A stretch of DNA of 29,889 nucleotides, from the NCBI GenBank assembly GCA_044345405.1, contig JBIJBE010000042.1, positions 1 through 29,889 on the forward strand, written 5' to 3'. Below are positions 1 to 29,014 of this stretch, one piece after another. The notes under the pieces are model-generated. The model did no database searches, was not told where the DNA came from, and saw nothing but the letters and a program-made list of their open reading frames with translations. Position 1 is the first letter of the stretch, and every line of letters begins with the position of its first letter. Origin of the DNA: Bdellovibrionota bacterium. GTDB lineage: Bacteria; Bdellovibrionota_C; UBA2361; OMII01. Both the position numbers and the translations under genes were made by a program.

Positions 1-410
1 CACCCAACACGGCGGTCAGGAATGACCGCCCTCCGTGATCACGGGTCGCACACGAGAGGGCTACCATTCCTGGTCGCCGGAATGTTGCGCTCCTGAAACA
101 ACCTTCGCCTCACCCAACACGGCGGTCGAGGACGACCGCCCTCCGTGATCACGGGTCGCACCTGGGAGGGCGACCATTCCTGGTCGCCGCAATGTTGCGC
201 TCCTGTAACCGCCTTCGCCTCACGCAACACGGCGGTCAGGAATGACCGCCCTCCCGATCTCGGGTCGCACCACGGGAGGGCGACCATTCCTGGTCGCCGC
301 AATGTTGCGCTCCTGTAACCGCCTTCGCCTCACGCAACACGGCGGTCAGGAATGACCGCCCTCCCGATCTCGGGTCGCACCTGAGCCGGTACAGTCCACG
401 GTCGCCGGAA
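1..410. repeat. 110-bp tandem array of paired inverted REP-like palindromes (BIME-like); units 1-110, 111-220, 221-330 and a partial, degenerate 331-410; probably continues beyond the window start
   Basis: Near-identical units recur every 110 bp. Each has GGCGGTC-AGGAAT-GACCGCC-CTCC and an inverted GGAG-GGCGACC-ATTCCT-GGTCGCC. Confidence 0.9.
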
Positions 411-438
411 TGCGCACGTGCATTTTGGTCGAGGCAAA

Positions 439-705
439 CTACCCCCGCGCCCTCAACACCCCAATCTCAACCAACAGCGCCGCGGCGGCTCTAAACAGTG
501 ACTCCGGTATCGAGGTCCCAACCTCGACATCATCGAGCAGCGCGCACATCTCCGGTTTCTCGACCACCGGGATACCGTATCTCCTCGCTACCTCGACCAT
601 ATGCGCGGCGATATCGAAATCTCCGCGAGCTACTACGGTGGGGGGTGCGCCTTCACCACTCGGAAAACCGAGCGCGAACGCCTGAGCGATATCTTTATGT
701 GTCAT
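439..705 (-). CDS. Stand-alone FlhB/SctU C-terminal (CC) domain protein (EscU/YscU/FlhB substrate-switch family)
   Basis: Re-started at MTHKDIAQAFAL. The sequence APPTVVARG...AAHMVEVARRYGIPVVEKP...VEVGTSIPESLFRAAAALL matches the FlhB-CC pattern APxVVAKG...IA...IP..E...IP..LY.AVA. Confidence 0.85.
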   Translation of the reverse strand: MTHKDIAQAFALGFPSGEGAPPTVVARGDFDIAAHMVEVARRYGIPVVEKPEMCALLDDVEVGTSIPESLFRAAAALLVEIGVLRARG

Positions 706-745
706 ACATTCATCACACAGAGCGCCGCTCCGTGAGTGGCCGCTC

Positions 746-3700
746 TTAACGAGAGGTTGGATTCGCTTTGAGCCTTTGAAGAACGGACTCAACGCTCCAT
801 ACTCCGAGTGGCTTCTCAAGGAAGCCCTCTTGAGGGGAGAGTGGATGAGCGACCGCGTCTCGTGGACCCGCGCTCAAAGCGACGATGCCGATATCGGGAA
901 ATCGCTCCCAGAGTTGCTTACAATCATCGAGGATACCTCTACCCACGACATCGAGATCAACGAACACACAATCCCAGGCGGCCGGGTCACGCTCCAGCAA
1001 CTCACGAGCCTGCGCGATATCGAAAACCGTCTTGGAGCGATAGCCCACTGATTCGAGAAGAGACGCGATAAACGGCTGAGAGCCCGTTTCCAATCCAAGA
1101 AGGAGCACTCCTCCCTTCATCGTACGACGCGGCCCCGCGTGTGGCGCGACCGGCACCACCTTATCCTCTGAAATCTGAAGCGGCAGGTAGATGCTAAAGG
1201 TCGAACCTTCGCCGACCTCTGACGATACCGTGATGAGACCGTTGTGCTGCTTCACGATGGAATACGCGGCGGAGAGTCCCAAACCTGAGCCACTTAGTCC
1301 CACGCCAGTGCCTGGATCCACGTTCTTGGTGGTGTAGAACGGCTCGAAGCACCGGAGCTGCTGCTCGGCGTTCATACCGTGCCCATTATCCTTCACATCA
1401 ACCCGTACATACACCCCGGGTGGAAGCTCAGGATCGACCTCAGCGGATCGCAATCGAACTCGGCTCACTACTATCGAAACCATTCCATCGCTCTTGCCCT
1501 CGATAGCTTCCTTCGCGTTCATGAGAAGGTTTGTGACTACCTGTTGAATCTGGCTTGGATCGAGGACAGCGTCCGGACAATCGGCGCACGGCTTCAAGTT
1601 AAACTCAACCCGCTTACCAAGGAGGCTACGATAGAGCTCTTGAGAATCGGTAATAAGCTTCGTAAGACTCACCCGTTGCCGCGTTCCCTGCCCCTGACTG
1701 GAGAAGTTAATGAGCTGCGACACGAGCGCGGCGCCGCGTTTAGCGGCATCGGTAATCATGCGAGCCGAATCGAGCGCGGGAGCTCCCTTGGGCAACTGCA
1801 TCTCAAGGAGGGCGACCTGTCCTAAGATCGCTTGCAACATGTTGTTGAAATTGTGCGCGACACCAGACGCGAGGAGACCCGCCATCCGCATCTTGAGCCC
1901 CTCGGCCATACGAGACTCAAAACGACGGGCCATTAAAACTTGCGCCATCTCATTTGCCATACTCGAGAGGAGGTGAAGACGAGCGTCCTTCGTCACAAGA
2001 TGCGGAATCGCCGGCTCTACAACCAGCACACCGATCACCTGTCCGAGCGAGACGAGCGGCACGATCACAAAGGTCTCAAGTTTTAACAGGGTGATGATCC
2101 GTTGAAGCCCGGAGCACTCCATCGTAGCGCCCGCTGGCACAACGACGGGACGTTGGGTCTTAATCGCCTCGTCAAGGAAGTCATGCTGGAGGCTTAATTC
2201 GATCTGCACCTCTTGAAGCTTTCGACGAACTCCCGTTCCGAATCCCGCTTTTCCAACGATGTGTGTTCCCTGTTCATTGGTAACACCAAACCATCCTCTG
2301 CGAAGGGTGAACTCCTGTTGCAGGATTGGGAAGGCATGCTCCGCGATCTCTCGTGGGGTTCGATATTTTCCGAGCTCATGACTGATACGGTAGAGCGCGC
2401 TCAACGTGTGACTCTGCTGGCGCTGCGCGTCAAAGAGATAGGTCTGCCGAACCGCGAGCGCTATCTGAGTTGCGGCGGCGGATACGAGCTCAAAATCGTT
2501 AGTCGTATAGGAATCACGCTCACGGGTGAAGAGAACAAGGATGCCATACACCTCATCATCAGCCATGAGAGGCATAAGGATCGCTGATTTTAAGCTCTCA
2601 ATCTTGGCGACCTTGGTATGAGCGCGAGGATGCTCTTGAATGTTTCCGAGCATCACTCCTTTCTTAGACGCGATGGTCTCTCGCAGCAGACTCGGCCCCT
2701 TCAAGACCCCATCCATATTCTCGATGTAGTTCTCAGAAAGTCCGTGAACCGCCACGAGCTCAGCCTCGTCCGTTTCGCGGTGATAGAAACATCCGTATCC
2801 ACTCGCGGAGCCCGTAGCTTTGAGAAGCGCGCGTAAGCCCCGCAGAACGACGAGCGCGGGGTCGGTCTGCCCCTGCAACGCTCGCGCGACCTCAAAGAGA
2901 GCCTCCACTCGAGCGTTCTGCGTCGTGAGAGCGTCCTGCACCCCACGTCGATCGGTAATGTCGATACCGAATCCCTCCCAACCAAGGAATCCTCCGTTGG
3001 TCGAGAACTGCGGCACCGCCCGCAACATGACCCATCGAACCTCACCAGTTTTCTGGTGAACCGCTCGAACCTCCTCACGGAGCTCACTGCGCTCAAGACG
3101 GAGACGCAAGATCCGTCGATGCAACGCGGCCTGGTCGCGGGGATCGATGATCCGCTCCCAGATTCGACTATTGTTCTTCATCTCAGCGGCGGTGATTCCA
3201 AGCATCGACTCCGCGTCGCCGAACACCTCGGTGATACCGAATTGCGCGTCCGTGATGATAATGAGAACATTTCCGTACTGCGCCATTCGCGAGTACTGAT
3301 TTCGAGACTCCTCGCTCGTGACGTGGCTTCGACTACCGGTCGCGGGAACACCAGCGGCGTCCACATTTGAGAGCGCGTGAGAGAGATCCTCGAACGCGAC
3401 GATCTCCTCCGGATGCCACCTGTGGTACGATCTCGTGAAGTAACACTCAACAATACCGAGAAGACGCCCCTGATCCATGAGTGGGAAGGCGCCATACGAT
3501 CGTACTTTGCGAACCGCCAGCTCAAGGGCAAGATCGTTTGGAACTCGCGCGCGCTGAAGGTCTTTGACAACGAAGGGAAGTGACCACGGCTGTCCTCGAA
3601 ACGCGGCCGCCCCGTTACGCACCTCGAAAATCGGGCTTTCGGCAAGCGCTTCGCCACCCTGCGAGAAGTGTCCCGTATGAAGACGTTCGGTGCGCCCGAT

Positions 3701-3838
3701 CGTAACGAGTACCTCGTCACAACTGAGCTGTCGTCCGATCGAATCCGCAAGCTGCGTCGCGAGATCGGACATCGACGAGTACGAGCTGCTCTCAAATCGC
3801 AGCCTCTTACCTCGAACATCTCCTACTTCAGACGCCAT
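746..3838 (-). CDS. Cytoplasmic hybrid sensor histidine kinase (GAF-PAS-GAF-GAF-HisKA-HATPase-REC)
   Basis: H-box LLASGVAHNFNNML, N-box QQVVTNLLMNAKEA, G1 DVKDNGHGM, F/G2 FEPFYTTK...GSGLGLS. PAS/PAC segment VRWVMLRAVPQF...GFGIDIT, GAF-like segments, and a C-terminal receiver ending FLEKP. No obvious transmembrane helix. Confidence 0.92.
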   Translation of the reverse strand: MASEVGDVRGKRLRFESSSYSSMSDLATQLADSIGRQLSCDEVLVTIGRTERLHTGHFSQGGEALAESPIFEVRNGAAAFRGQPWSLPFVVKDLQRARVPNDLALELAVRKVRSYGAFPLMDQGRLLGIVECYFTRSYHRWHPEEIVAFEDLSHALSNVDAAGVPATGSRSHVTSEESRNQYSRMAQYGNVLIIITDAQFGITEVFGDAESMLGITAAEMKNNSRIWERIIDPRDQAALHRRILRLRLERSELREEVRAVHQKTGEVRWVMLRAVPQFSTNGGFLGWEGFGIDITDRRGVQDALTTQNARVEALFEVARALQGQTDPALVVLRGLRALLKATGSASGYGCFYHRETDEAELVAVHGLSENYIENMDGVLKGPSLLRETIASKKGVMLGNIQEHPRAHTKVAKIESLKSAILMPLMADDEVYGILVLFTRERDSYTTNDFELVSAAATQIALAVRQTYLFDAQRQQSHTLSALYRISHELGKYRTPREIAEHAFPILQQEFTLRRGWFGVTNEQGTHIVGKAGFGTGVRRKLQEVQIELSLQHDFLDEAIKTQRPVVVPAGATMECSGLQRIITLLKLETFVIVPLVSLGQVIGVLVVEPAIPHLVTKDARLHLLSSMANEMAQVLMARRFESRMAEGLKMRMAGLLASGVAHNFNNMLQAILGQVALLEMQLPKGAPALDSARMITDAAKRGAALVSQLINFSSQGQGTRQRVSLTKLITDSQELYRSLLGKRVEFNLKPCADCPDAVLDPSQIQQVVTNLLMNAKEAIEGKSDGMVSIVVSRVRLRSAEVDPELPPGVYVRVDVKDNGHGMNAEQQLRCFEPFYTTKNVDPGTGVGLSGSGLGLSAAYSIVKQHNGLITVSSEVGEGSTFSIYLPLQISEDKVVPVAPHAGPRRTMKGGVLLLGLETGSQPFIASLLESVGYRSKTVFDIAQARELLERDPAAWDCVFVDLDVVGRGILDDCKQLWERFPDIGIVALSAGPRDAVAHPLSPQEGFLEKPLGVWSVESVLQRLKANPTSR

Positions 3839-3857
3839 CGTTTCCTTACACTACACA

Positions 3858-4655
3858 TCAAAACTTTGGTAACCGCGTGGAGGTTTCCGTTAGTCTTCGT
3901 ATCACGAGGACCTTGGACTTCCTCACCTGTTTCTCTATCTCCGCCATCGCCATCACCTGGTGCTCATGTCGCCGAGCGGCGCGGAGATGAGGGTCCCCCT
4001 CACTCTCTTTGTATTCCTCCTTAACCTCTTCGAAGCTCATCCGGTTTTGCCGAATGAACCGTCGCCACGCCAGGAAGTAGGCGCATCCTCCGAGAACCAC
4101 AAGGGCACCAACACCCCGCGACATCGCGGAGATGAGATATCCACCGACCCCGGACACGATCCACCCACCCGGAGCGCGAAACAGGTGTGCCGCGTTCGAC
4201 AGATAGGACGTGAGGAGTGGGATCATCAACACTACGATCACCACCCCTCGAACCGATCCCAACGCCCCGTCCAACGCGCCTTCGCGCACACGGTTCACGA
4301 GCCCTCTCGGTTGGAGCCTTGAGAGGTCGGGAACGATCTGTTTCGGGGTAACGAGTCCCTTCGTTTGGAGGAGACTCGCGAGAACGCTCGCCACAGCCAC
4401 TGACCCGATACTCAGAAGAAGTAATGCTGCTACGAACAGCGCGGAGTACTTAAGGGTCAGGACGGGACTTAAAACCTTGAATTTAAACCATTGTATCAAG
4501 GTTCCGATCCTCACCCAAGGACGAGATACGAGGAAAAAAAGAAAGAGTCCAAGCCAACCCGCCGCAACCGTAACCATCCGACTTTTCACGGTTTTACCGT
4601 CGCGTCGAGCCTTCAGAAGCCTCGAAACCGAGGGAGGGAAGCGTTTTTCACTCAC
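3858..4655 (-). CDS. sctU: SctU/FlhB-family export switch protein, N-terminal membrane part plus CN linker only (no NPTH motif, no CC domain)
   Basis: GTG start at 4655 gives SEKRFPPSVSRLLKARRDGKTVKS (EKTExPT..L..AR..G motif), about four hydrophobic segments, then RMSFEEVKEEYKESEGDPHLRAARR. The protein ends shortly after KVLVI. Confidence 0.85.
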   Translation of the reverse strand: MSEKRFPPSVSRLLKARRDGKTVKSRMVTVAAGWLGLFLFFLVSRPWVRIGTLIQWFKFKVLSPVLTLKYSALFVAALLLLSIGSVAVASVLASLLQTKGLVTPKQIVPDLSRLQPRGLVNRVREGALDGALGSVRGVVIVVLMIPLLTSYLSNAAHLFRAPGGWIVSGVGGYLISAMSRGVGALVVLGGCAYFLAWRRFIRQNRMSFEEVKEEYKESEGDPHLRAARRHEHQVMAMAEIEKQVRKSKVLVIRRLTETSTRLPKF

Positions 4656-5439
4656 GTTCCCCCTCCCAAAGCCCCGGGTGCGCCTCAAATCCGGCCTGCT
4701 CGCCCCCAACACCAACCAACCACTCCCACGGCGCCACCACACGCGAGAACGCGTCCCGTGAGCAGGGAAGCCCATCGGTGAGCAATGCAACAAGAAGAAG
4801 GAAGAGCGCAAGCATCTTGAGGAGCGCCGCGGTTTGAGTGAAGGCGAGCCCACTCACAACACGAGAGAGGAATGCGCACACGATATCGATCAGGAGAAAC
4901 GCCCCAACCCAGACCGCGCAGAGACGCATCCCCTCCCCAAGTAGAAAGGCTCCACTTCTCGCCACTCCGAACAGAAACGAAGCATCGTGCACTGGCGAGC
5001 CAATGGGAATTGCCACGAAACTTCGAGCGAGCGCGCTCACGACGACCTCTAATCCACCGCACATCAGCGCCACGACCACACTGGCGCTCTTCGCCAACAC
5101 CGCCATGTCGGAGCTGCCGTGTCCCTGTAAGGGATCGAGCACAGCGGCGATCATCTGTCCCCGCGCCGTATCGATCAGTTCACCGACCATCTCGCTGATA
5201 TCGGCGACAAACCTCAGTGGCGCGCCGAGCACGAATCCGATTACAAACTCAGTTACGAGGGAAAGGGGAGAAATATCCTCAACGAGAGATCCCCTCGGAG
5301 CGAGAACGAAGCTAAGCCCTACCGCGATAAGAAACCGCGGCAGCGTGGAGAGCGCATCACCAAACGGCAGTGACACAAGACATCCGAAACACCGTAACGC
5401 GACCGCCGCGCACGCGAGGTCACACGGAGAAGCTATCAC
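4648..5439 (-). CDS. sctT: Type III export gate subunit SctT (FliR homolog)
   Basis: Highly hydrophobic. Motifs EFVIGFVLG, GELIDTARGQ..A.VLDP and LLIDIVCAFLSRV. Located between the sctS-like and sctU-like genes with overlapping stop/start codons. Confidence 0.85.
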   Translation of the reverse strand: MIASPCDLACAAVALRCFGCLVSLPFGDALSTLPRFLIAVGLSFVLAPRGSLVEDISPLSLVTEFVIGFVLGAPLRFVADISEMVGELIDTARGQMIAAVLDPLQGHGSSDMAVLAKSASVVVALMCGGLEVVVSALARSFVAIPIGSPVHDASFLFGVARSGAFLLGEGMRLCAVWVGAFLLIDIVCAFLSRVVSGLAFTQTAALLKMLALFLLLVALLTDGLPCSRDAFSRVVAPWEWLVGVGGEQAGFEAHPGLWEGERE

Positions 5440-5699
5440 AGCCCCCTCCGCCCGATCGTTTCAATCGAACGAAGCGATCGCTCAAACAGCTCACACACGG
5501 CGTCCCCCGCCCAACTTCCCGCGACGATCACAAGCGCTATAAAGGTCACGAGCCGAACGAGATGGGCGACGCTCTGCTCCTGAATCTGCGTCACCGCTTG
5601 AAGCATCGCCACGCACCCAGCGGCAAAAGCGATCGCAGCCATCGGAATCCCCGAGAGGTAGATAACGATCATGAGGCTATCAAGAACGAGAGTGTGCAT
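5436..5699 (-). CDS. sctS: Type III export gate subunit SctS (FliQ homolog)
   Basis: 87 aa with two hydrophobic segments and the signature LQAVTQIQEQS. Confidence 0.9.
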   Translation of the reverse strand: MHTLVLDSLMIVIYLSGIPMAAIAFAAGCVAMLQAVTQIQEQSVAHLVRLVTFIALVIVAGSWAGDAVCELFERSLRSIETIGRRGL

Positions 5700-5706
5700 A
5701 CACGCC

Positions 5707-6357
5707 TTACCGATAGGAGGTAATGAGACCCTTGGCTAACAAGAGCCACCCATCCGTTGAGACGAAGAGAAGGATCTTCAGCGGCAGGGAGACCGTGTTC
5801 GGACTCATCATCGTAAGCCCGAGCGCGACGAGAAGATTCCCCACGATAAGATCGATAGCGAAGAACGGGATGAGAAGGATGAACGCTATGAGAAACCCCT
5901 TCTTTATCTCGGAGAGAACGAACGCCGCCATCGCCGTCGAAAGGGAGATTTTTTCATCTACCGGCGTCCCCTGGTCATTGGTGGCGAGACGTTGAAAGGT
6001 CTTCACCTCTCGCTCTCCCGCGTGCGCAAGGAGAAATTCCCGCCACGGCGCTACGACCTTCTCACCGCGCTTGAGCACTTCCGCGAACGCTCCCTCTCGG
6101 ACATCCGAGATCGTGACCTGATTGAAAGCTGCAAGCGTTTGGTGGATCACCGGTTGCATAACCGAGAGTGACATCACCATAGAGAGCGCCATCACCAACG
6201 AGGAGCTTGGGGCTTGCTGCGTACCGAATCCGCTCCGCAAGAGACTCAACACGATTGAGAACTTGAGGTAACAGGTGCCAAGCGCGATGAGGATCGGTAC
6301 CAATCCGATGGCGAGCGAAACGAGGAGAAGGGTTTCAGGCGATAACGTTTTCATCAT
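5707..6357 (-). CDS. sctR: Type III export gate subunit SctR (FliP homolog)
   Basis: Start MMKTLSPE (6357 or 6354) after GGGAGGAGG. Motifs GTCYLKFSIVLSLLRSGFGTQQAP, AFVLSEIKKGF, IPFFAIDLIV and MMSPNTVSLPLKILLFVSTDGW. No N-terminal signal peptide. Confidence 0.92.
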   Translation of the reverse strand: MMKTLSPETLLLVSLAIGLVPILIALGTCYLKFSIVLSLLRSGFGTQQAPSSSLVMALSMVMSLSVMQPVIHQTLAAFNQVTISDVREGAFAEVLKRGEKVVAPWREFLLAHAGEREVKTFQRLATNDQGTPVDEKISLSTAMAAFVLSEIKKGFLIAFILLIPFFAIDLIVGNLLVALGLTMMSPNTVSLPLKILLFVSTDGWLLLAKGLITSYR

Positions 6358-7282
6358 CCTCCTCCCTTGGTTGTCGAGCTCTGCGAAGGAATCCAGAGAG
6401 CGCACCTCGCATGGCCAGATCTCGACGAACCTCGAAGCCACCGATCGTGATCCCACTCTCTGACAGGCGCCTCATAATCCCGTATCTCTCCCCCTCGAGC
6501 GTACGAACAAGGGACGGACTCGCGGCCTCCATCACGATCCCAACTCGACCCGGCGCGGATGTTTCAAGCCGACAGGCGATCGGCGCTCCCCCGCTCTCCA
6601 TCCGCATCAGCAACGCCGCTCCATTTTTTCCCTCCTCACTCTCAACACCCTGCAGCGAAACCGCGATCGTCTCAGGGCGATACCTGTGCGCCTCAACCGC
6701 GTCATGTGAGCGCGTCTCAGCGCAGTGCGAGGTCACATACACGGGAGAAACGACGGGGGGATAACCATCCCGACTCGGCATCTCTCTCCGACTCCTTTCA
6801 TCACGCACCGAATCGTGGGGCGCCCGCTCAGCTCGGCGACCAGTCAACGACACGCGGCGAGCGAGAGACACCTCCAGAGCCTCCTCCCCGAGTCGCTCGG
6901 CGCTCTTGTGGGCGCGAATCGCGCGCTCCTTCGCGCGTGCCCTCTCAAAGGCAGACAGGACGCACTTCGCTTTCATGACCCGGGCGATCTGATGCTGAAC
7001 CTCTCCGGCGACCTTTCGGTGTTCTCCCGTGGCCTTTGAGAGGTCGTGGTGCGCCTGCAGAGCGCGACTCAACGCCACGGAGTGCGCTCCCCCTCGTGTC
7101 ACCTTGCCAGCCGTCACCTTTGACGCGTGCGCAATCGCGCGCCAAAAGCGTTCCTCCCGTTCACGCACCTTTTCGCGAGCGTGCCCATCTCTGGCTCTCG
7201 CCTGTCCAAGCGATACCACCTCCCGCTGGTACTCCCCCGCCACCTGCGCGCTCTTCGCCTGTACTAGAGCTCCTCGAATCAT
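6335..7282 (-). CDS. Putative SctO/FliJ-like coiled coil fused to an SctP/FliK-like C-terminal (ruler/T3S4) domain
   Basis: Start MIRGALVQ after GAGGAG. The N-half is a charged coiled coil ending AFERARAKERA...ERLGEEALE. The C-terminus IACRLET...VGIVMEAASPSLVRTLEGERYGIMRRLSESGITI resembles FliK-C. Position immediately upstream of sctR supports this. Confidence 0.5.
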   Translation of the reverse strand: MIRGALVQAKSAQVAGEYQREVVSLGQARARDGHAREKVREREERFWRAIAHASKVTAGKVTRGGAHSVALSRALQAHHDLSKATGEHRKVAGEVQHQIARVMKAKCVLSAFERARAKERAIRAHKSAERLGEEALEVSLARRVSLTGRRAERAPHDSVRDERSRREMPSRDGYPPVVSPVYVTSHCAETRSHDAVEAHRYRPETIAVSLQGVESEEGKNGAALLMRMESGGAPIACRLETSAPGRVGIVMEAASPSLVRTLEGERYGIMRRLSESGITIGGFEVRRDLAMRGALSGFLRRARQPREEDDENVIA

Positions 7283-7289
7283 CGGCTCC

Positions 7290-7586
7290 TCACTGCGGCT
7301 GCTGTAATTTGCGAAGTGAGGCGACACCGCTCTCCGCGATCTTCGAGACAACCTCAACACGGAGTTGATACCGGGTAACATCCATCTGAAGGCGGAGTAG
7401 CTCGGTCAGCTGACGGGCGCTCTCTGGAGCCGTTGGGGGCTTGGATGTGGAGGACGAGATATATGTCGAAACTCGCTTCACGATCTCCTGCCAACCTCCG
7501 GCATGGGAATCGTTAGTCGGGGCGACCACCTCGGCGATCTGAGCGCTTGAGCCCACCGAAGCGGGTTGGTGTAGTGTCGTTCTCAT
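7290..7586 (-). CDS. SctI/PrgJ/HrpB2-like inner-rod (or needle-family) protein
   Basis: Start MRTTLHQ after AAGGGAG. C-terminal helix ELLRLQMDVTRYQLRVEVVSKIAESGVASLRKLQQPQ fits the inner-rod pattern LL.LQ....Y....EL.SK......V..L...Q. Confidence 0.6.
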   Translation of the reverse strand: MRTTLHQPASVGSSAQIAEVVAPTNDSHAGGWQEIVKRVSTYISSSTSKPPTAPESARQLTELLRLQMDVTRYQLRVEVVSKIAESGVASLRKLQQPQ

Positions 7587-7610
7587 GGATACTCCCTTAC
7601 AAACGTCCAT

Positions 7611-7637
7611 GTATCGGAAGCACCGGGCCAGAGTTGT
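7611..7637 (-). promoter_or_regulatory. Possible sigma-28 (FliA)-type promoter for the export-gate cluster
   Basis: Minus strand reads ACAAC-N14-TCCGATAC, about 25 nt upstream of the 7586 start. The -10 is good and the -35 only partial. Confidence 0.4.
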
Positions 7638-7757
7638 GTGATGGAGCACCGACTGAGAAGAAATCTCTCTTTTCCTGGGCCCGACTTCTCAGTAGTCTAG
7701 GGGAGCGGTGCGCTTTAACCGCCCCTATTTACACAGAATTTCCATCCGGATATCGCG

Positions 7758-9200
7758 ATGACGCTCGACCCTGTACTCAACTCGAAGATCATTGAAATGG
7801 GCCGTCACATATTCGCCGACCTCGGCGACACGGACCCGTCTCTCCTCGATCCCCGCTACCTCAATTCACTCCTTATGCGGTGGTCGATGAGCCAACCGGA
7901 GTTCAAGGTCAATCTCTTTAGACTCGTTGACGTACTCCCAACATTACAATCGAATGAAGCGATAGCTGAACACGTCCGGGAATACCTCATCCCTCCGGCG
8001 AACAAGATGCACCCGTCCCTCGGGTGGTTCATCAATCTCTGTAAAAATCCCCTCCTCGCGAACGTCGCCGCCTTCATGGTGCGACAGGGGGTCAAGCAGA
8101 TGGCGAGTATGTTTATCGCGGGCGAGTCCCCAACCTCAGCGCTACCCGTTCTTCAACGGCTTCGCGACGAGAAATACTCCTTCACCGTCGATCTCCTTGG
8201 TGAGTTCTGCGTGTGCGAAAAGGAGGCGAAGGAGTATCAGGACCGGTACCTCGATGCGATAGAAACGTTCGGCGCGACGATTCCAACGTGGAAAGAAGGA
8301 GCGCCTCTCATCTCGGGACATCCAGGTGAGACGAGCCCGGTGTGCGTATCCGTTAAACTCTCGGCGCTCTACTCTCAGACAAACGTTCTTAATTTTGAGC
8401 GAAGTGTCGCCGTCCTGAGCGAGCGACTCGCTGAGATCGCTCGAAGGGTCAAACACTACGGCGCCTTGATGTACGTCGACGCTGAGGACTCTGGGAACAA
8501 CTCGATCATTTACGAGGCCTTCAAGCGAACGTTCGGTTCGCAGGAGTTCCTCGATATCCCCTACCCCGGCATCGTTATCCAAGCGTACGCGAAAAACTCC
8601 GAAGCCCGCGTCGATGAGATGCTCGCGTTCGCGCGACAACGGGGCGCTCCGATCGCGATTCGATTGGTAAAGGGAGCCTACTGGGATTTCGAGCGTGTTG
8701 TGAGCAGTCAGAACGATTGGGAGTTTCCACTCTGGACGAAGAAGCAATCATCCGACGCGCACTACGAGCACCTTACCCGAAAGCTTCTCGATAACCGCGC
8801 GGTGTGCCTCCCCGCCTTCGGATCACACAATATCCGATCGCTTGCGCACGCATGCTGTTACGCCGAGTCGATCGGGCTCACCGAGAAGGATTTCGAGATC
8901 CAGGTTCTCTACGGCATGGCGGAGCCTATCGCGAAGGCGTTCATGAAACGGGGCTACCTCGTTCGGATGTACGTTCCACTTGGGGAGCTCCTTCCCGGAA
9001 TGGGGTACCTCGTTCGAAGACTCCTCGAGAACACCTCAAACGAGTCCTTCCTACGCCACACCTTCTTCGATGAGGATGAGGTATCAACCCTGCTGAAAGA
9101 GCCCGTTCTACAACCTGAGGATGGCGGTCCATCTCACACCCAAGAGACCTCTACGATAGAGCCACCACCTGAGACGGAACCTCTCTACCAAAACAGCTAA
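7758..9200 (+). CDS. Proline dehydrogenase (N-terminal half of a PutA-type enzyme)
   Basis: FKVNLFRLVDVLP, FTVDLLGE, VSVKLSAL, VDAED, IRLVKGAYWD, FGSHN, EIQVLYGMAE, YLVRRLLENTSNESFLR. Confidence 0.93.
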   Translation: MTLDPVLNSKIIEMGRHIFADLGDTDPSLLDPRYLNSLLMRWSMSQPEFKVNLFRLVDVLPTLQSNEAIAEHVREYLIPPANKMHPSLGWFINLCKNPLLANVAAFMVRQGVKQMASMFIAGESPTSALPVLQRLRDEKYSFTVDLLGEFCVCEKEAKEYQDRYLDAIETFGATIPTWKEGAPLISGHPGETSPVCVSVKLSALYSQTNVLNFERSVAVLSERLAEIARRVKHYGALMYVDAEDSGNNSIIYEAFKRTFGSQEFLDIPYPGIVIQAYAKNSEARVDEMLAFARQRGAPIAIRLVKGAYWDFERVVSSQNDWEFPLWTKKQSSDAHYEHLTRKLLDNRAVCLPAFGSHNIRSLAHACCYAESIGLTEKDFEIQVLYGMAEPIAKAFMKRGYLVRMYVPLGELLPGMGYLVRRLLENTSNESFLRHTFFDEDEVSTLLKEPVLQPEDGGPSHTQETSTIEPPPETEPLYQNS

Positions 9201-17522: not shown

Positions 17523-18623
17523 CTAGCTAGCGACGTAGGCGGCCATCTCACCGCCCAGCTTCTCCATCGCTCGTACGATCTCAAACTGAGTACGGGCCCG
17601 CTCTAAGTTCTGCTTCGGGCGATGAATCCGGAAGTAGGTGTCCCCCTGAAGATAATCGGTCAGGAATCGAACCCCAAGGATGAGAGCGAGCACACGAGGC
17701 GAAACCGAAAGAAGGGAGCGCTCCTTCGCGGTAAGCATCTCGCCCACCTCAGAGAGGTACCCATCGCAGATCGCGCGGTAGAGGTTCATATCAACCACAA
17801 CCTTGGAGAAATCCTGTTCATCTTCAGCGCACGGTACCGCGGTATTTCGCACGAGATCGCCGAAGTCAAACAGAGGCGTTCCCGCCATCGCGGTGTCGAG
17901 ATCGAGGAGACAGACCGCGGTATCACCAGCTGAGTTAAAGAGCACGTTATTGAGCTTCATGTCGTTATGCGACACACGGAGTGGGATCTCCCTCTTTTCA
18001 AGGGCTGCTATCAACGCCCCCCCGAGCTCTCGACGAGACTGCGCGAAGTCTATCTCACTCATCGCCTCACGAGCTCTTCCCTCGCGATCCTCTTTCAATG
18101 CCTTGGCGAAGGCGTCATACCGTCGGAGCCCGTGATGAAAATAGGGAATGGTATCTTTGAGACTTTCAGCCGATGTGTTGGAGAGCGCTCGCTGGAATCT
18201 ACCAAGAATGGCGGCCGCCTCGCGAGCGACGTGGGTACTCGGACACACATCGTAGGACACGGTGTTCTCGATATAGTCAAAGCTTCGCCAAAACTCACCA
18301 CCTTCATCTTGGAGGTACGAGGCTCCTTCCTTTGTGCGAATAAGGGTGAGCGTAGTTTCTCCTGGGACAACCGGTCGCCCGTGAAGATCCTCGCGAAGGG
18401 CGTCCGTCACTATCTCAAGGTTCCCCATGAGCGCTTCGATGTCGGTGAATATTCGGTGATTCACCGATTGGTGGATATACCGCTTACGAACACCACCGAC
18501 ATCCCAGTGACCGATATAGGTTCGGTTGATGTGACCACGCTTGAGCTCCTCCACACTGTGGAGCGTGCCGTTGATGTCGAACTGAGTCAGGATGTGAATG
18601 GGGACGTTCTTTGATTGCTCCAT
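17523..18623 (-). CDS. Aminoglycoside-phosphotransferase-fold kinase, N-acetylhexosamine 1-kinase (NahK)-like
   Basis: GHINRTY, TIPYFH, RVSHNDMKLNNVLF, LLDLDTAMAG, DFGDLVR, RFLTDYLQGDTYF, NLERARTQF. Confidence 0.85.
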   Translation of the reverse strand: MEQSKNVPIHILTQFDINGTLHSVEELKRGHINRTYIGHWDVGGVRKRYIHQSVNHRIFTDIEALMGNLEIVTDALREDLHGRPVVPGETTLTLIRTKEGASYLQDEGGEFWRSFDYIENTVSYDVCPSTHVAREAAAILGRFQRALSNTSAESLKDTIPYFHHGLRRYDAFAKALKEDREGRAREAMSEIDFAQSRRELGGALIAALEKREIPLRVSHNDMKLNNVLFNSAGDTAVCLLDLDTAMAGTPLFDFGDLVRNTAVPCAEDEQDFSKVVVDMNLYRAICDGYLSEVGEMLTAKERSLLSVSPRVLALILGVRFLTDYLQGDTYFRIHRPKQNLERARTQFEIVRAMEKLGGEMAAYVAS

Positions 18624-18645
18624 ACTTCGACCTTCCTCGTTCCCT

Positions 18646-20046
18646 CTATAACGCCGGTGCCGCCTCTGCGCTACCACTCGGAGAAACTCGAGGCGGCGTT
18701 GCCGAGCCACCTTCCCCCTCCTCACTTAGGAGACCATCCACGAACTCATCCACCGCGAACGGGAGCAGGTCTCGCGCCTTCTCCCCCACGCCGACGTAGA
18801 ACACGGGGATCTTAAGCTCCTGCGAGATCGCCACGATGATACCACCCTTCGGTGTTCCGTCGAGCTTCGTCACGACGAGACCGGTAAGCGGGGTGCTCGC
18901 GTTAAACTCACGCGCCTGGGAGAGCGCGTTTTGACCACTCACACCATCAACAACGAGTATCGTTTCGTGCGGGGCATCCGACACGTGTCGACGTATCGAG
19001 TTACGAACACCCTCAAGCTCCTGCATAAGATTCGATTTGGTGTGGAGTCGCCCAGCGGTGTCGATTAGCACGACATCAGCCCCCTGCTCCTTCGCGGCGA
19101 CCATCCCATCAAACACAACCGCCGCTGGCTTGGCGTTCTCCGCTCCACTATAGACGAAGAAACTGGAACGGGTGCCCCACTCTTTGAGCTGCTGCACAGC
19201 GGCTGCTCGGAAGGTATCCGCCGCGATAGCGACAACCTTCTTGCCCTGCTCCTGATAGCGAGTCGCTAATTTAGCGACCGTCGTTGTCTTTCCAACGCCG
19301 TTCACCCCCACCACGAGGATAACGAGTGGGTTCCCGACAGGCTCATACATCCGATGCTCCGTAGGCACCGGGATAAGCTCCTTACGAACTCCGTCCTTCA
19401 GGAGCTCACGGAGAGCTGTCTCGGTCACCTCCTGATTCTGGGAGGCCCGCTCCCGTACGGTGTTCACGAGTGCATCAGCGACCCGAGCGCCGACATCGCT
19501 CGTGATCAACATCTCCTCAAGGTCATCCAAACTGGCGAGGTCGACACTTTTGCGTCCGGTGAAGAGGTTCTTCAGCTTACCGAGAAGGCTCGTGCGGCTC
19601 TTCGCCATCCCCTTCGCGATCGTCGCGGCTTCAACCTGTGGCGCTACCGCTTTCTCGACAACAGGAGCTGGCTGTGGAGCGATCTCAACTGGCGTAGGCG
19701 CAACGAGCGCCTCAGGAGCTACAACAACTTCCGGAGCCGGCGGTGTAATGACGACTGCCTCCGGGGCCGTTATCTCAGCGACGGACGATGGAGCGGCCTC
19801 TACCTTCGCTCGGGCGCGTACCTCACGTCGCAGGTCCGCTACCTCGCGCGCGAGCTTTTCGATCTCCGCGTGGAGGAGAGAGAGCTCCTTCTCCGAAGAC
19901 TCACGAGCCCCCTTACCCTTGAGGGAGAGGATCCCGACGATGCAGTAGAGAAGAACCAAGGCGATGACGAGAAGCGATATCTCTATATCCACCGCCGCTA
20001 CGACTGAATCGATAACGGCATAAACGTTTTGCATATCGTCGAACAT
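18646..20046 (-). CDS. ftsY: Signal recognition particle receptor FtsY with N-terminal transmembrane anchor
   Basis: GVNGVGKTTT, DTFRAAA, DTAGR, TKLDGTPKGG, GVGE. Confidence 0.96.
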   Translation of the reverse strand: MFDDMQNVYAVIDSVVAAVDIEISLLVIALVLLYCIVGILSLKGKGARESSEKELSLLHAEIEKLAREVADLRREVRARAKVEAAPSSVAEITAPEAVVITPPAPEVVVAPEALVAPTPVEIAPQPAPVVEKAVAPQVEAATIAKGMAKSRTSLLGKLKNLFTGRKSVDLASLDDLEEMLITSDVGARVADALVNTVRERASQNQEVTETALRELLKDGVRKELIPVPTEHRMYEPVGNPLVILVVGVNGVGKTTTVAKLATRYQEQGKKVVAIAADTFRAAAVQQLKEWGTRSSFFVYSGAENAKPAAVVFDGMVAAKEQGADVVLIDTAGRLHTKSNLMQELEGVRNSIRRHVSDAPHETILVVDGVSGQNALSQAREFNASTPLTGLVVTKLDGTPKGGIIVAISQELKIPVFYVGVGEKARDLLPFAVDEFVDGLLSEEGEGGSATPPRVSPSGSAEAAPAL

Positions 20047-20057
20047 ACACCTACCAC

Positions 20058-24052: not shown

Positions 24053-24751
24053 CTACTCAGTTTTCACGGGCTCTTGAGGATCCTGCGGCTCTTCTTGGAC
24101 CTCGACCTCAGACACCTCCCCGGTGCCCAACACGGTTGACCCAATCCGCTTGGTAATGTCGGCCAACGTGCCGTGGTGCGGCATAAGGATAGCGAGCGAG
24201 TAATCGACCGCTGAGAGGTAGGAGAACGCCAGAGAAACGATAAGGATATTTAAGCCGATGAACTGCGCGGTGACGCGATACCCGAAGAAGCTAAAGGAGT
24301 AGTCGTACAGAAGAAGCGCCAAGATAGCGATCATCTGCAGCGCGCTCTTCACCTTTCCACCGGACTTAGCGGCAACGATAGTCCCATCCTTCGCCGCAAA
24401 CGCTCTCAGCCCCGTTATCCAAAGCTCCCGGGCAAGGATAAGGGTCACCATCCATCCTGGAACGAACGAGACGCAGTTGTCATCCCTCAGGGAGACCAAC
24501 ATAACGAGCGCCGCCATCACGAGGATCTTATCGGCGAGAGGATCGAAGAGCTTTCCGAAATCGCTAATCGCTTTATAGCGACGGGCGATATAGCCATCGG
24601 CGTAATCGGTGAGCGCGGCCAACGCAAAGATAATAGCGGCGATATTAAGCGAATTTCGGCTAGGCTCTATCAACACGGCAACGAACACCGGGATGAGGAT
24701 CAACCGGAGAAAGGTCAGCCAGTTAGGAATTCGTTTAAACCAGTTAGCCAT
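24053..24751 (-). CDS. pgsA: CDP-diacylglycerol--glycerol-3-phosphate 3-phosphatidyltransferase
   Basis: IPNWLTFLR, TDYADGYIARR...SDFGKLFDPLADK, RELWITGLR, GKVKS. Confidence 0.93.
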   Translation of the reverse strand: MANWFKRIPNWLTFLRLILIPVFVAVLIEPSRNSLNIAAIIFALAALTDYADGYIARRYKAISDFGKLFDPLADKILVMAALVMLVSLRDDNCVSFVPGWMVTLILARELWITGLRAFAAKDGTIVAAKSGGKVKSALQMIAILALLLYDYSFSFFGYRVTAQFIGLNILIVSLAFSYLSAVDYSLAILMPHHGTLADITKRIGSTVLGTGEVSEVEVQEEPQDPQEPVKTE

Positions 24752-25397
24752 GCGCTACGGCAGTATACTGCTTTTTCAGGTGCAGTACACGCCTGACGTA
24801 GTTCTGAGTCTCAGAATATGGCGGAATGCCGTTATAACGCTGCACCGGAACATCCCCGGCGTTATAGGCAGCAAGTGCATGGGACTCATTTCCGTACCGC
24901 TTGAGAAGCCGGGCGAGATACTGAGTCCCTCCATGAATGTTCAACTCCGGAACGAACGCGTTTCGAACCCCGAGCATTCGGGCGGTGCTCGGCATCAGCT
25001 GCATCAACCCCTGAGCCCCCTTTGGAGACACCGCTCTGGGGTTAAAGCCTGACTCGACGTGAATTACCGCTTTAATCAGATTAGGGTCTACACGATGTCT
25101 TCGGGCCGCATCGTGAATAGCTCGCTCATAAACGGCGGCCGAATGAAGACGCCGGCCACCCTTCATCCTGGTCTTTCGATAGTAACTAAAGCCATTAGCT
25201 CGGGCCGTGAAGATCTCAGCCTGCTCCCCCTCCTCCGGAGGTTTCGTCGTGAAACGAATAACTCCACCCGGCTCTCGAACAACGTAGATCTTCCCGTCCG
25301 CCGCGTGTCCCTCGGACGCCATCATCACGATGGCGACGAGGAGCCCGCAGAGTGATGGCAAGAAAGCCTGTGTCATGAGCATACGAACCTTATGCAT
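24744..25397 (-). CDS. Secreted lytic transglycosylase (SLT domain, DUF4124-like N-terminus)
   Basis: Signal-peptide-like N-terminus. AVIHVESGFNPRAVSPKGAQGLMQLMP, ALAAYNAG, GIPPYSETQNYV. Confidence 0.92.
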   Translation of the reverse strand: MHKVRMLMTQAFLPSLCGLLVAIVMMASEGHAADGKIYVVREPGGVIRFTTKPPEEGEQAEIFTARANGFSYYRKTRMKGGRRLHSAAVYERAIHDAARRHRVDPNLIKAVIHVESGFNPRAVSPKGAQGLMQLMPSTARMLGVRNAFVPELNIHGGTQYLARLLKRYGNESHALAAYNAGDVPVQRYNGIPPYSETQNYVRRVLHLKKQYTAVAHG

Positions 25398-25835: not shown

Positions 25836-26696
25836 TTAGAATCGCAAAATTTGGAGCGCAAGGGCCGGCAACTGATTCGCCTGAGCCAACACCGCGGTGC
25901 CCGCCTGCTGCAGGATATTGAACCGAGTGAGATTCGCCGCCTCCTCAGCGACATCCACATCTCTAATCCGACTTTCCGACGCCTGAAGATTCTCCTTCGC
26001 GACGCCGAGCTTGGCCACGGCGGTCGCCAACCTTGATTCCACCCCACCAAGCGCTCCTCGTGCGGCTCCGACCGAGTAGATCGCCGAATACACCGCATCC
26101 AGCGCTAGACGGGCGGCGGTCGCGGCCTCCGCGTCTGTAGATGCGTTGACGGAGTACGTCAGGGCACCGGAAGCGTTCCCCAACCCGATCCCCTGGAGGG
26201 TGGCGAGTCGATTCACGTACGCTATCTGCGACGCTGTACCAGAACCTGTTCCGACCTGAATCGTAAGCTGGCTTTGCCCCGAAAGAAGCTTAATCCCATT
26301 AAATTCGGTCACAGCCGCTATACGCTCTATCTCCGAGCTCAGAGCGACAAACTCATTCGAAACAACCGAGCGTTGCGCTGAAGTTAGGGGACCATTCGCG
26401 GTTTGCGACGCAAGCTCAGCAAGGCGAGCAAGGATATTCGCGACCTCACCCAGCGCTCCATCAGCTATCGCGATAGTGGAGATACCGTCGTTCGTATTAC
26501 GAATCGCCTGCCCCGCGATACGGGACTGCGCCCGCAAGGACTCAGCGATGGCGAGACCGGCGGCGTCGTCTCCGCCGGATGTCACCCGGTGCCCAGAGCT
26601 GAGCTTGTTGAACGAATCGCTCAACTTCCCGCCCGTGGAATCTAAGCGACGTTGCGCTTGAAGAGCGGTCGTATTGCTTCCGATACTAATACCCAT
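25836..26696 (-). CDS. fliC: Flagellin (short, divergent paralog)
   Basis: LSSG.R.....DDAAGLAIAE, RNTNDGIS...IADGAL, ESRIRDVDVAEE, ILQQAGTAVLAQANQ; 286 aa. Confidence 0.95.
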   Translation of the reverse strand: MGISIGSNTTALQAQRRLDSTGGKLSDSFNKLSSGHRVTSGGDDAAGLAIAESLRAQSRIAGQAIRNTNDGISTIAIADGALGEVANILARLAELASQTANGPLTSAQRSVVSNEFVALSSEIERIAAVTEFNGIKLLSGQSQLTIQVGTGSGTASQIAYVNRLATLQGIGLGNASGALTYSVNASTDAEAATAARLALDAVYSAIYSVGAARGALGGVESRLATAVAKLGVAKENLQASESRIRDVDVAEEAANLTRFNILQQAGTAVLAQANQLPALALQILRF

Positions 26697-26747
26697 GGTC
26701 TCTCTAATCCCTTAAAACGCGTTACATAAGTCTACGGACGCTCACCT

Positions 26748-27605
26748 CTATCGCAGGAGCTGCAGCGCCAAGCTCGGTAACTGATTCGCTTGCGCGAGAA
26801 CCGCCGTACCGGCCTGTTGCAGGATGTTCAATCGAGTCAGGTTCGCGGCTTCCTCTGCTACGTCCACGTCTCGAATTCGGCTCTCCGCTGCCACAAGATT
26901 CTCTCTCGTCACACCAAGATTGGTGATCGCGGTGGAGAGTCGTGACTCAACTCCACCAAGAATTCCTCGTGACGCTCCAACCGAGTAAATAGCCGCGTAC
27001 ACCGCGTCGAGCGCCAGTCGGGCAGCCGTCGCCGCAGCCGCGTCAGACGCTCCGTTAATCGAGTAGGTCAACGCCCCAGAACTGCCACCAAGTCCGATCC
27101 CCTGCAGGGTCGCGAGCTGGTTGGTGTAGCCGATCTGTGATGACACACCAGAACCCGTTCCCACCTGAATCGTGATCGTGCTTGTTCCGGAGAGAAGCTT
27201 AATTCCGTTGAACTCGGTCACCGCAGCGATACGCTCAATTTCAGAACTTAACGCCACGAACTCGTTCGCCACCACAGAACGCTGCGTCGTACTCAAGGTT
27301 CCGTTCGCCGACTGCGACGCAAGCTCCGCGAGACGAGCGAGAATGTTACCCACCTCACCTAACGCGCCGTCCGCGATCGCGATCGTTGAGATTCCGTCGT
27401 TCGTGTTTCGGATCGCTTGGCTCGCGATACGAGACTGCGCCTTCAAGGACTCCGCGATAGCGAGTCCCGCCGCGTCGTCAGCGCCTCGGTTGATTCGGTA
27501 TCCCGAACTCAACTTGTTAAACGCTAGACTCAGCTTTTGGCCGGTGCCGTCCAAGCGCCGCTGCGCTTGAAGCGATGTGATATTACTTCCGATACTAATT
27601 GCCAT
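26748..27605 (-). CDS. fliC: Flagellin (short, 285 aa)
   Basis: Canonical N- and C-terminal flagellin motifs; RBS AAGGAAGG. Confidence 0.96.
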   Translation of the reverse strand: MAISIGSNITSLQAQRRLDGTGQKLSLAFNKLSSGYRINRGADDAAGLAIAESLKAQSRIASQAIRNTNDGISTIAIADGALGEVGNILARLAELASQSANGTLSTTQRSVVANEFVALSSEIERIAAVTEFNGIKLLSGTSTITIQVGTGSGVSSQIGYTNQLATLQGIGLGGSSGALTYSINGASDAAAATAARLALDAVYAAIYSVGASRGILGGVESRLSTAITNLGVTRENLVAAESRIRDVDVAEEAANLTRLNILQQAGTAVLAQANQLPSLALQLLR

Positions 27606-27878
27606 GACTACCTTCCTTGCTCGTGATAAAGCCCCAACGCCGTCTTAGTAGATATGTTCGTGGCCCCCTCGTCGTGAGGACGCGAACACTCGTTCCCACG
27701 CTCCTCAAGAGTCGCGAACAAAACACGACTTATAAAGACGGCGAGAACCTTCCTGCTGAAGCGATAGTATGAGGTGAAACGAACCGAGAACTACCTGAGG
27801 ACTTCGGTGAACTGCTACTGCAATAAACTTCGGCACTACGTTACTTCTCGGAGCTTCACTACTCTCGCTCCACAGATA

Positions 27879-27906
27879 GTTTCGGATCCTTTCGTGGAAC
27901 TCTTGA
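27879..27906 (-). promoter_or_regulatory. Probable sigma-28 promoter for flagellin 26748-27605
   Basis: TCAAG-N15-TCCGAAAC, identical in both repeat copies. Confidence 0.5.
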
Positions 27907-28086
27907 ATACAAAATGTTGTGGCAGAACAATAAATGGATCACGGAAACGGAAAGTCAGTGGGTTTCAAAAAGAGAGCGGACAGAACCGAGCAGAAAAAAA
28001 TATCTTCTCTCCGAGCTCGCCGCTCTCTTTGTGTTTCAACAATGTCCGAATACTCTTATGCGACAATCTGCACTGAGGACGGATTC

Positions 28087-28131
28087 AAAAAACGAGAGGC
28101 CCACCAGCGCGTTGACGCCAGCGAGCCTCTC
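28087..28131 (-). terminator. Intrinsic terminator after flagellin 28157-29014
   Basis: GAGAGGC...GCCTCTC stem followed on the minus strand by GTTTTTT. Confidence 0.7.
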
Positions 28132-28156
28132 ACATAATTGCGTAATCCAAATCCGC

Positions 28157-29014
28157 TTATCGCAGGAGCTGGAGCGCCAAGCTCGGCAGCTGGTTCGCTT
28201 GCGCGAGAACCGCCGTACCGGCCTGTTGCAGGATGTTCAATCGAGTCAGGTTCGCGGCTTCCTCCGCCACGTCCACGTCTCGAATTCGGCTCTCCGCTGC
28301 CACAAGGTTCTCTCTCGTCACTCCAAGATTGGTGATCGCGGTGGAGAGTCGTGACTCAACTCCACCAAGAATTCCTCGTGACGCTCCAACCGAGTAAATA
28401 GCCGCGTACACCGCGTCCAGCGCCAGTCGCGCCGCCGTCGCCGCAGCCGCGTCAGACGCTCCGTTAATCGAGTAGGTCAACGCGCCAGTGCCGTTACCGA
28501 GTCCGATTCCCTGCAAGGTCGCGAGCCGGTTGGTGTAGCCGATCTGTGATGACACACCAGAACCCGTTCCTACCTGAATGGTAATCGTGCTTGTTCCCGA
28601 CAGAAGCTTAATTCCGTTAAACTCGGTCACCGCAGCGATACGCTCAATTTCAGAGCTTAACGCCACGAACTCGTTCGCCACCACAGAGCGCTGCGTCGTG
28701 CTGAGCGTTCCGTTCGCTGACTGCGAAGCAAGCTCCGCGAGACGAGCGAGAATGTTACCCACCTCACCTAACGCGCCGTCCGCGATCGCGATCGTAGAGA
28801 TTCCGTCGTTCGTGTTGCGAATCGCTTGGCTCGCGATACGAGATTGAGCCTTCAAGGACTCCGCGATAGCGAGTCCCGCCGCGTCATCAGCGCCTCGGTT
28901 GATCCGGTATCCCGAACTCAACTTGTTAAACGCTAGACTCAGCTTTTGCCCGGTGCCGTCCAAGCGCCGCTGCGCTTGAAGCGATGTGATATTACTTCCA
29001 ACACTAATTGCCAT
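28157..29014 (-). CDS. fliC: Flagellin (short, 285 aa)
   Basis: Differs from 26748-27605 at only about five residues (I5V, NQL/NRL, GGSSG/GNGTG). Confidence 0.96.
   Translation of the reverse strand: MAISVGSNITSLQAQRRLDGTGQKLSLAFNKLSSGYRINRGADDAAGLAIAESLKAQSRIASQAIRNTNDGISTIAIADGALGEVGNILARLAELASQSANGTLSTTQRSVVANEFVALSSEIERIAAVTEFNGIKLLSGTSTITIQVGTGSGVSSQIGYTNRLATLQGIGLGNGTGALTYSINGASDAAAATAARLALDAVYAAIYSVGASRGILGGVESRLSTAITNLGVTRENLVAAESRIRDVDVAEEAANLTRLNILQQAGTAVLAQANQLPSLALQLLR

Follow-up and report, generated by a model that had tools for sequence, protein, structure and literature searches.

How does a type III export gate obtain its substrate-switch subunit, SctU, when the protein is encoded in two pieces that meet at the very site where the family normally cuts itself? 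To our knowledge all characterised FlhB/SctU proteins self-cut at N|PTH, and this NPTH autocleavage is treated as a hallmark of the family; its role is debated, the act of cleavage being set against the cleaved state. The question arises from a stretch of 29,889 nucleotides, called the window throughout (positions 1 to 29,889 of contig JBIJBE010000042.1, assembly GCA_044345405.1, labelled Bdellovibrionota bacterium), in which the SctU N-half and the SctU CC domain are separate genes with a sensor histidine kinase gene between them. An earlier note, made from the DNA letters, had described this arrangement as a SctU split at the autocleavage site around a hybrid kinase, and its open reading frame (ORF) coordinates, its quoted sequence and its gaps of 19 nt (N-half to kinase) and 40 nt (kinase to CC) are all correct. 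The break lies at the autocleavage loop, the break and the gene order around it are conserved among relatives, and both halves are under purifying selection. We consider it probable that these features reflect an ancient fission of SctU at that loop, with the two halves reassembling without a covalent bond in a non-flagellar export gate.

The position of the break is defined by the Pfam profile PF01312 (Bac_export_2; length 335 positions, cut-off 24.4 bits), full coverage of which is reached only by the two ORFs combined. The N-half matches positions 2-255 (130 bits) and the CC ORF positions 262-333 (46.8 bits), so the break falls within the six profile positions where FlhB has NPTH, and the profile alignment of both ORFs thus bears out the proposed split at the autocleavage site. 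The N-half is encoded directly after sctR, sctS and sctT, which agrees with its placement in the FlhB/SctU family. Its stop codon is at 3858-3860 and the CC start lies 3152 nt further downstream, so that the two cannot be one polypeptide. The N-half C-terminus reads ...QVRKSKVLVIRRLTETSTRLPKF and then stops; it consists of the beta-1 strand KVLVI and a 13-aa tail, with no NPTH. The flagellar FlhB of the same genome (on contig C9; contig, locus, genome and family labels are our own) reads VIVTNPTHYAVALKY at the break, within the wider stretch ...DVIVTNPTHYAVALKY....

The same break is present in all 35 N-halves examined. In the 26 N-halves that were aligned, every one stops 1 to ~22 residues past the strand matching FlhB DVIVT before NPTH (N-half consensus SKVIVV). 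The CC proteins open with a leader that is short and variable, and then continue with A-x-A/G-L-x-Y, which in FlhB is the strand after NPTH. NPTH occurs in none of the 35 N-halves and none of the 34 split CC ORFs, compared with 19 of 19 FlhB proteins of the same clade, and PTH is likewise absent from all 34 split CC ORFs. For genomes G052 and G024 the genome scan read on to profile positions 267-271; no NPTH remnants lie behind their stop codons, and these extensions were rejected as alignment noise. The M-T-H start of the window's CC protein had been taken for an echo of the P-T-H terminus left by autocleavage, but is a coincidence: among 23 aligned CC proteins only the window's has it at that place, six residues before the AFALGF strand as against one residue in FlhB. 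Being neither conserved nor in register, it was rejected as a vestige. Rejoining by a split intein or by trans-splicing was also rejected, since N-half tails of 1 to ~22 aa and short CC leaders leave no room for intein halves.

The distribution of the split was followed in 124 genomes of this phylum, all of one class and scanned as sets of 41, 33 and 50. The set of 41 comprises the window's own genome, 24 of the same genus and 16 from other families of the order. By our count 37 of these 41 have an N-half-type match, and in 29 the two halves share a contig and a strand, the distance being mostly 3.1-3.4 kb; the same pair is present in at least 19 of the 33 genomes from other orders of the class. 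An N-half orthologue was found in 43 of the 50 further genomes, in open frames of 194-325 aa, and among the orthologue matches listed for those 50 no open frame reaches 340 aa. An uninterrupted SctU of this type was not seen in any of the 124 genomes. Database proteins give a similar picture: 41 of 47 N-half homologues are 213-265 aa long, the other six being weak matches (27-42% identity) of 350-367 aa, and the best 150 cluster representatives (50% identity) are all 217-290 aa and matched to their last residues. With the CC protein as query no longer (fused) proteins were found at E<=1e-5, which is weak evidence. The split is old and conserved, and the order sctU(N)-kinase-sctU(C), for which conservation in relatives had been suggested as a check, is kept throughout the 124-genome clade apart from family f3, which lacks the kinase.

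Gene order was compared in detail in 35 loci, the window and 34 from relatives. In 34 of these 35 the gene next after the N-half is a kinase gene (in L016 the kinase is shorter and weakly related), and a CC gene lies downstream in 34 of 35, found by BLAST in 33 and by profile in L022. The N-half-to-kinase gap ranges from -65 to +89 nt, with locus L104 reading 1458 nt only since its kinase consists of two ORFs. That kinase (L104:6677-9672, genome G015) is broken into ORFs of 486 and 519 aa by a frameshift or an assembly error. The kinase-to-CC gap is -8 to +92 nt except in L005-L007, L108 (266 nt) and L022 (~2 kb). In L005-L007 (genomes G005, G008 and G021) 2.5-3.6 kb with opposite-strand ORFs separates kinase and CC, and the CC gene is kept even though it is uncoupled from the kinase. 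The L005 insert (2490-5892) holds opposite-strand ORFs of 281 and 328 aa as well as a membrane-like ORF of 219 aa. In G026, a member of family f3, the halves are adjacent, the longest CC frame overlapping the N-half stop by 4 nt, and a kinase orthologue is absent from all three f3 genomes (G026, G111 and G112), in which only paralogue-level matches of 28-31% occur, as they also do in the window's genome. As family f3 keeps two adjacent genes without it, the kinase is not needed to maintain the split.

The locus was also recovered independently of the assembly. The 4.5-kb stretch is present in 24 lake-water metagenome runs among the matches listed, and both junctions are spanned, with no listed indels, by contigs of runs X8, X10, X17 and X20, none of which is flagged as a possible source. 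Positions 705-746 are crossed by X10 record 6 and X8 record 25, and positions 3838-3858 by X10 record 8, X17 record 15 and X8 record 30.

Both halves are under purifying selection, their ratios of nonsynonymous to synonymous divergence (dN/dS) falling below 1, a check that the earlier note had suggested. Nei-Gojobori estimates from the window and four relatives of the same genus give 0.22-0.34 for the N-half, 0.10-0.17 for CC and 0.09-0.21 for sctR, the lowest values in the cluster being those of the kinase (0.03-0.045). In the closest pair, L103/L104, which is unsaturated (dS 0.16-0.33), the N-half has a ratio of 0.22 and CC one of 0.11. At 0.55-0.92, the synonymous divergence of the N-half gene is clearly lower than the 0.85-2.7 of sctR, sctS, sctT and the kinase in the same pairs (window versus L101-L104), a difference that could be noise from a saturated estimate.

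Stand-alone CC proteins are known, and the relationship of the split CC genes to them was addressed with a tree built on only 87 columns from 68 CC domains, after removal of three near-duplicate rows. One side of a branch with support 94/94 consists of the 31 kinase-linked CC genes. The 18 other stand-alone CC genes of the clade form one side of another (98/97), and these 18 join the 19 FlhB CC domains (94/94), so that the split CC is a lineage of its own within the clade. Membership in a generic stand-alone CC group, which would have spoken against the split, is thus not what this tree of the clade's own sequences gives (FlhX and YlqH of other phyla are outside it). The best NCBIfam match of the window's CC protein is to TIGR00789 (flhB_rel), at 51.8 bits below the cut-off of 117.35. 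The window's genome contains just three Bac_export_2 matches, the flagellar FlhB, the N-half and the CC, and there is therefore only one possible partner for the N-half.

Some observations bear on how such genes are recognised. Databases label them 'flagellar biosynthesis protein FlhB' or 'type III secretion system FlhB-like substrate exporter'. A 53-aa database product (P0230) is identical to the last 60% of the window's CC protein (439-705); some gene callers evidently start CC at an internal methionine and lose the first strand, which would hide the nature of the protein. Many relatives, though not the window's genome, have a third FlhB-like gene covering profile positions 2 to ~235 (e.g. 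G025:C3:11489-12157), and on another contig an extra stand-alone CC gene (e.g. G025:C1:29292-29504, locus L116) that groups with flagellar FlhB. This N-only copy and extra CC could represent either a spare of the FlhX type or another split at a different place.

Docking of the halves was modelled by co-folding the CC protein with residues 196-265 of the N-half, from alignments of 23 and 27 rows respectively. An ipSAE score of 0.69 was obtained (0.69, 0.65 and 0.70 in three runs), compared with 0.01 for the best of three controls. In the calibration 58 of 80 solved complexes and 2 of 110 mismatched pairs attained the mark, counts that apply only roughly here as custom alignments were used. At least 86% of contacts are common to the runs, partner pLDDT is at least 71, and the tightest contacts place N-half residues 248-252 (KVLVI) between CC residues 8-12 (AFALG) and 45-50 (IPVVEK). 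The solved structures of cleaved FlhB, YscU and EscU have the same strand arrangement. The docking of the two proteins in the manner of cleaved fragments, which the earlier note had put forward for co-folding, is thus what the model predicts, and from it we infer that the two halves reassemble.

The protein encoded between the halves is a sensor kinase with GAF, PAS_3 and HATPase_c matches above the Pfam cut-offs (HATPase_c 76.4 bits); HisKA, at 21 bits, stays under its cut-off of 26.9, and the sequence contains the H-box GVAHNFNN. Alignments with NCBIfam kinase families extend over residues 601-1013. Its description as a hybrid kinase holds in part: Pfam Response_reg gives no match at E<=0.01, but a profile of the C-terminal ~135 positions matches receiver domains in the Protein Data Bank (PDB; best 2qxy, E 4.2e-5, almost all top rows being receivers). 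This region has a nearly invariant aspartate and a K-P motif, with G-L in the window in place of the usual acidic pair, and in the order to which the window belongs the label appears reasonable. In the other orders of the class the kinases are 626-1077 aa long, and several stop no more than ~50 residues past the ATPase domain and lack the receiver-like C-terminus. The kinase is probably a co-inherited regulator gene, for which a role in switching may be suggested.

Several explanations of the arrangement can be set against one another. An assembly or sequencing artefact, either a chimeric join or a frameshift breaking one gene, comes to mind for a metagenome-assembled genome whose contig ends 440 nt past the CC gene inside a repeat. 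The same layout recurs, however, in 35 loci of different species, the contigs of four other runs cover both junctions without indels, and the halves are separated by a 3-kb kinase gene under strong purifying selection; the clade-wide genome scans and the bridging contigs refute both an artefact and a recent disruption, to which we assign a negligible probability. The N-half could instead be the truncated remnant of a dying type III secretion system (T3SS), with CC as an unrelated spare of the FlhX/YlqH type serving the flagellar FlhB. The genome does have an intact flagellar FlhB, the best NCBIfam match of CC is a family of stand-alone CC proteins, even if below cut-off, and the apparatus is dispersed with no secretin alongside. 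Decay is nevertheless hard to reconcile with dN/dS values well below 1 for both halves and all their neighbours, or with an arrangement kept across a clade of 124 genomes; the split CC genes group alone while the other stand-alone CC genes sit with the CC domains of FlhB, and the co-fold passes against its controls. We regard such a relic as quite improbable.

The conserved kinase lends itself to a further proposal, going back to the earlier note, in which CC would be a regulated, exchangeable subunit and the GAF/PAS kinase in between would couple its supply or docking to a cytoplasmic signal, governing switching or gate opening; if true, these would stand under direct two-component control and not follow a needle-length clock. 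No gene of the cluster is more strongly conserved than the kinase, which in 34 of 35 loci keeps its position between the halves. In G005, G008 and G021, given the opposite-strand ORFs, a separate promoter probably serves the CC gene, and a REC-HisKA protein and a single-domain REC protein accompany other modules of the apparatus. In Yersinia the YscU CC fragment dissociates and is secreted ahead of effector secretion (PMC3504009). Set against this are the three f3 genomes, which keep adjacent halves with no kinase orthologue, the variable length of the kinases of other orders, several without the receiver-like C-terminus, and the weakness of gene order alone as evidence for binding, and we think the proposal unlikely. 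What we favour is one old fission of SctU in the NPTH loop. Membrane domain, linker and the CN segment as far as beta-strand 1 would come from the N-half, and the rest of the CC fold from the 88-aa product; the two polypeptides would join post-translationally by strand complementation, with KVLVI inserted between two strands of the CC sheet. The reassembled product would have the architecture of a mature self-cleaved SctU, and the chemistry of asparagine cyclisation, no longer needed, would have been lost. Several observations weigh against this fission. As the co-fold arrangement matches the solved FlhB, YscU and EscU structures, its score may be model memory, showing likeness and not binding, and the pLDDT of the N-half chain is just 53-57. 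dS is saturated in most CC pairs. Genome G024, of the same genus and 91% complete, has an N-half and a kinase with no CC found, although its contig ends 2 kb downstream. The remaining apparatus is scattered over at least four other contigs, and no secretin adjoins any module. Finally, binding of the T3S4 (substrate-switch domain) protein and of an early substrate by HrcU depends on its NPTH/PTH loop (PMC3040844); the present protein lacks this loop and so, once reassembled, may not switch classically.

The split genes close a run of eight at the low-coordinate end of the window, all on the minus strand, in the order SctI-like, SctP-like, sctR, sctS, sctT, SctU N-half, kinase and SctU CC (coordinates are collected in the table below, together with those of the other modules). 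A counterpart of the SctI-like ORF119 heads the cluster in 27 of the 34 relatives' loci (BLASTP E<=1e-3). The true start of the SctP-like ORF348 is probably near 7282, since homology in relatives begins near residue 34. In a scan of positions 1-8000 no promoter-like sites were found, the 7 terminator-like sites compare with 7.0 expected, and no terminator-like site lies in either minus-strand gap flanking the kinase. Rfam has no match in the same interval, and no RNA dataset is listed with window positions 400-4900. The kinase and both halves are probably co-transcribed.

Features of the window and of the other apparatus modules in the same genome
Feature	Position	Strand	Evidence or content
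ORF119, candidate inner-rod protein (SctI-like), first cluster gene	7290..7649	-	Pfam T3SS_basalb_I E 8.4e-4, 20.2 bits, below cut-off 32.4
ORF348, candidate SctP/FliK-type length ruler with C-terminal T3S4 domain	6335..7381	-	weak Flg_hook and structural matches
sctR (FliP family)	5707..6456	-	Pfam FliP 169.8 bits; NCBIfam NF009438 EscR/YscR/HrcR 187.4 bits, above cut-off 179
sctS (FliQ family)	5436..5699	-	Pfam Bac_export_3 46.5 bits; best NCBIfam TIGR01403 SctS, below cut-off
sctT (FliR family)	4648..5439	-	Pfam Bac_export_1 92.7 bits; best NCBIfam TIGR01401 SctT, below cut-off
SctU N-half, 265 aa: membrane domain, linker, CN segment	3858..4655	-	Bac_export_2 positions 2-255 of 335, 130 bits
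Sensor histidine kinase (GAF-PAS-GAF-GAF, HisKA, HATPase_c), 1030 aa	746..3838	-	Pfam GAF, PAS, GAF, HisKA (below cut-off), HATPase_c; divergent receiver-like C-terminus
SctU CC domain as separate 88-aa protein	439..705	-	Bac_export_2 positions 262-333, 46.8 bits
Tandem repeat, just downstream of CC gene	1..381		3.5 copies of a 110-bp unit, 92% matches
SLT transglycosylase gene, near the flagellin genes	24744..25397		
Three consecutive flagellin genes	25836..29014	-	286, 285 and 285 aa; Flagellin_N and Flagellin_C
Module on contig C18 (L098)	17977-22179		sigma factor, YscJ-like, FliN-like, x, SctV-like
Module on contig C76 (L100)	64119-69367		two FHA/YscD-like genes, YscJ-like, x, FliN-like
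Module on contig C22 (L115)	42806-45200		FliH-like gene and T3SS ATPase
Module on contig C67 (L099)	44850-47060		third FlhA-like gene beside Tad/T2SS-type ATPase and platform genes and Ser/Thr kinase

The contig end adjoins a tandem repeat just downstream of the CC gene. A BLAST search of window positions 1-440 against its own genome returned 475 rows, ~100-114 deep over the 110-bp unit, and contigs of other runs break at this repeat, where depth is 260-900 compared with ~10 elsewhere. The repeat probably explains why the contig ends where it does. The flagellin genes lie towards the opposite end of the window.

The sequence of ORF348 points weakly to a ruler. Flg_hook (FliK-C) matches are weak in four of the five orthologues scanned (E 4.8e-4 to 0.12, all below cut-off). 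Its last 120 aa were modelled (pLDDT 85), and the model aligns best in VIA-align with the PscP switch domain 5cuk (Z 7.2, rmsd 3.4, 80 aligned) and next with FliK-C 2rrl (Z 6.0, rmsd 2.7, 68 aligned), values that are middling, as Z under 8 is common by chance. Foldseek of the same model against the PDB gives no match at E<=0.001, with PscP and FliK-C at E 0.05 and 0.16. On the basis of these models a ruler-type partner of the switch seems to be present.

SctS, SctT and the N-half all score best in NCBIfam with Sct models over flagellar ones, though below cut-offs. Besides its flagellar set the genome has two more FlhA/SctV-type genes, two YscJ-type, two FliN-type and two FHA/YscD-type genes, several receiver proteins, and a second T3SS-type ATPase behind a FliH-like gene (with a weak T3SS_ATPase_C match), so that a non-flagellar core set of SctR/S/T/U/V/N/J/Q type is present, distinct from the separate flagellar set. 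Two-component parts also occur in the other modules, with a REC-HisKA protein on C18 and a single-domain REC protein on C76. Two secretin genes are present, on contigs without any inspected T3SS module. To judge from these gene assignments, the split protein is part of an injectisome-type apparatus whose genes are dispersed, in an uncultured, flagellated lineage of fresh water that carries the label Bdellovibrionota.

The clade may be viewed as a natural experiment, in which the cleaved state has been hard-wired by gene structure in at least 150 protein clusters (50% identity) and the NPTH/PTH loop discarded. It supports the view that the two-piece architecture alone is needed, and poses the new question of how a ruler of the T3S4 type would act on a switch that has no PTH loop. 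It also reveals an injectisome-like apparatus that is both dispersed and conserved in these flagellated freshwater bacteria, and the unusual constancy of the kinase gene within the split suggests a connection, open to testing, between two-component signalling and the type III export gate. In full-text searches of the literature we found no account of a naturally split FlhB/SctU, although supplementary gene tables of T3SS surveys (e.g. PMC3459982) could hold cases, and no account of a T3SS in this lineage.

The present SctU resembles the autocleaving proteins YscU, EscU, HrcU, SpaS and FlhB in its Pfam family, its place beside sctRST, the order of its parts and its predicted architecture, and differs from them in being made from two genes 3.1 kb apart, with no NPTH and no PTH N-terminus on CC. 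Stand-alone CC proteins (FlhX/HP1575, YlqH and TIGR00789) are, like the CC described here, homologues of the FlhB C-terminus of 80-95 aa that lack NPTH. Proteins of the FlhX/YlqH type usually accompany an intact FlhB as an extra copy, whereas the present CC is the sole one available to a truncated SctU, falls below the TIGR00789 cut-off and forms a separate group in the tree. That the structure of export-gate genes can change by fusion or fission is also evident from the FliR-FlhB fusions (NCBIfam NF009411), although these represent the opposite event, in which two subunits are joined and the cytoplasmic domain of FlhB is kept whole. The Myxococcus 'needleless' T3SS* and the Myxo NF-T3SS group share a non-flagellar, T3SS-like basal apparatus in a non-pathogen, with no adjacent secretin and long conservation (PMC3459982, PMC12075869); the portions of these two papers available to us mention no split SctU, and SctI-like and SctP-like genes belong to the present system, which is spread over several loci. 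A parallel in design is the laboratory split of HrcU, in which a gate lacking CC receives it from a separate gene (HrcU 265-357 in trans). According to PMC3040844, function is largely restored, the authors conclude that it is the result of cleavage and not the act that matters, and a CC homologue can also act in trans in H. pylori, for which that paper cites Wand 2006. The HrcU fragment starts with PTH and complements only partly; the split described here, by contrast, is natural, lacks PTH and is kept clade-wide by selection.

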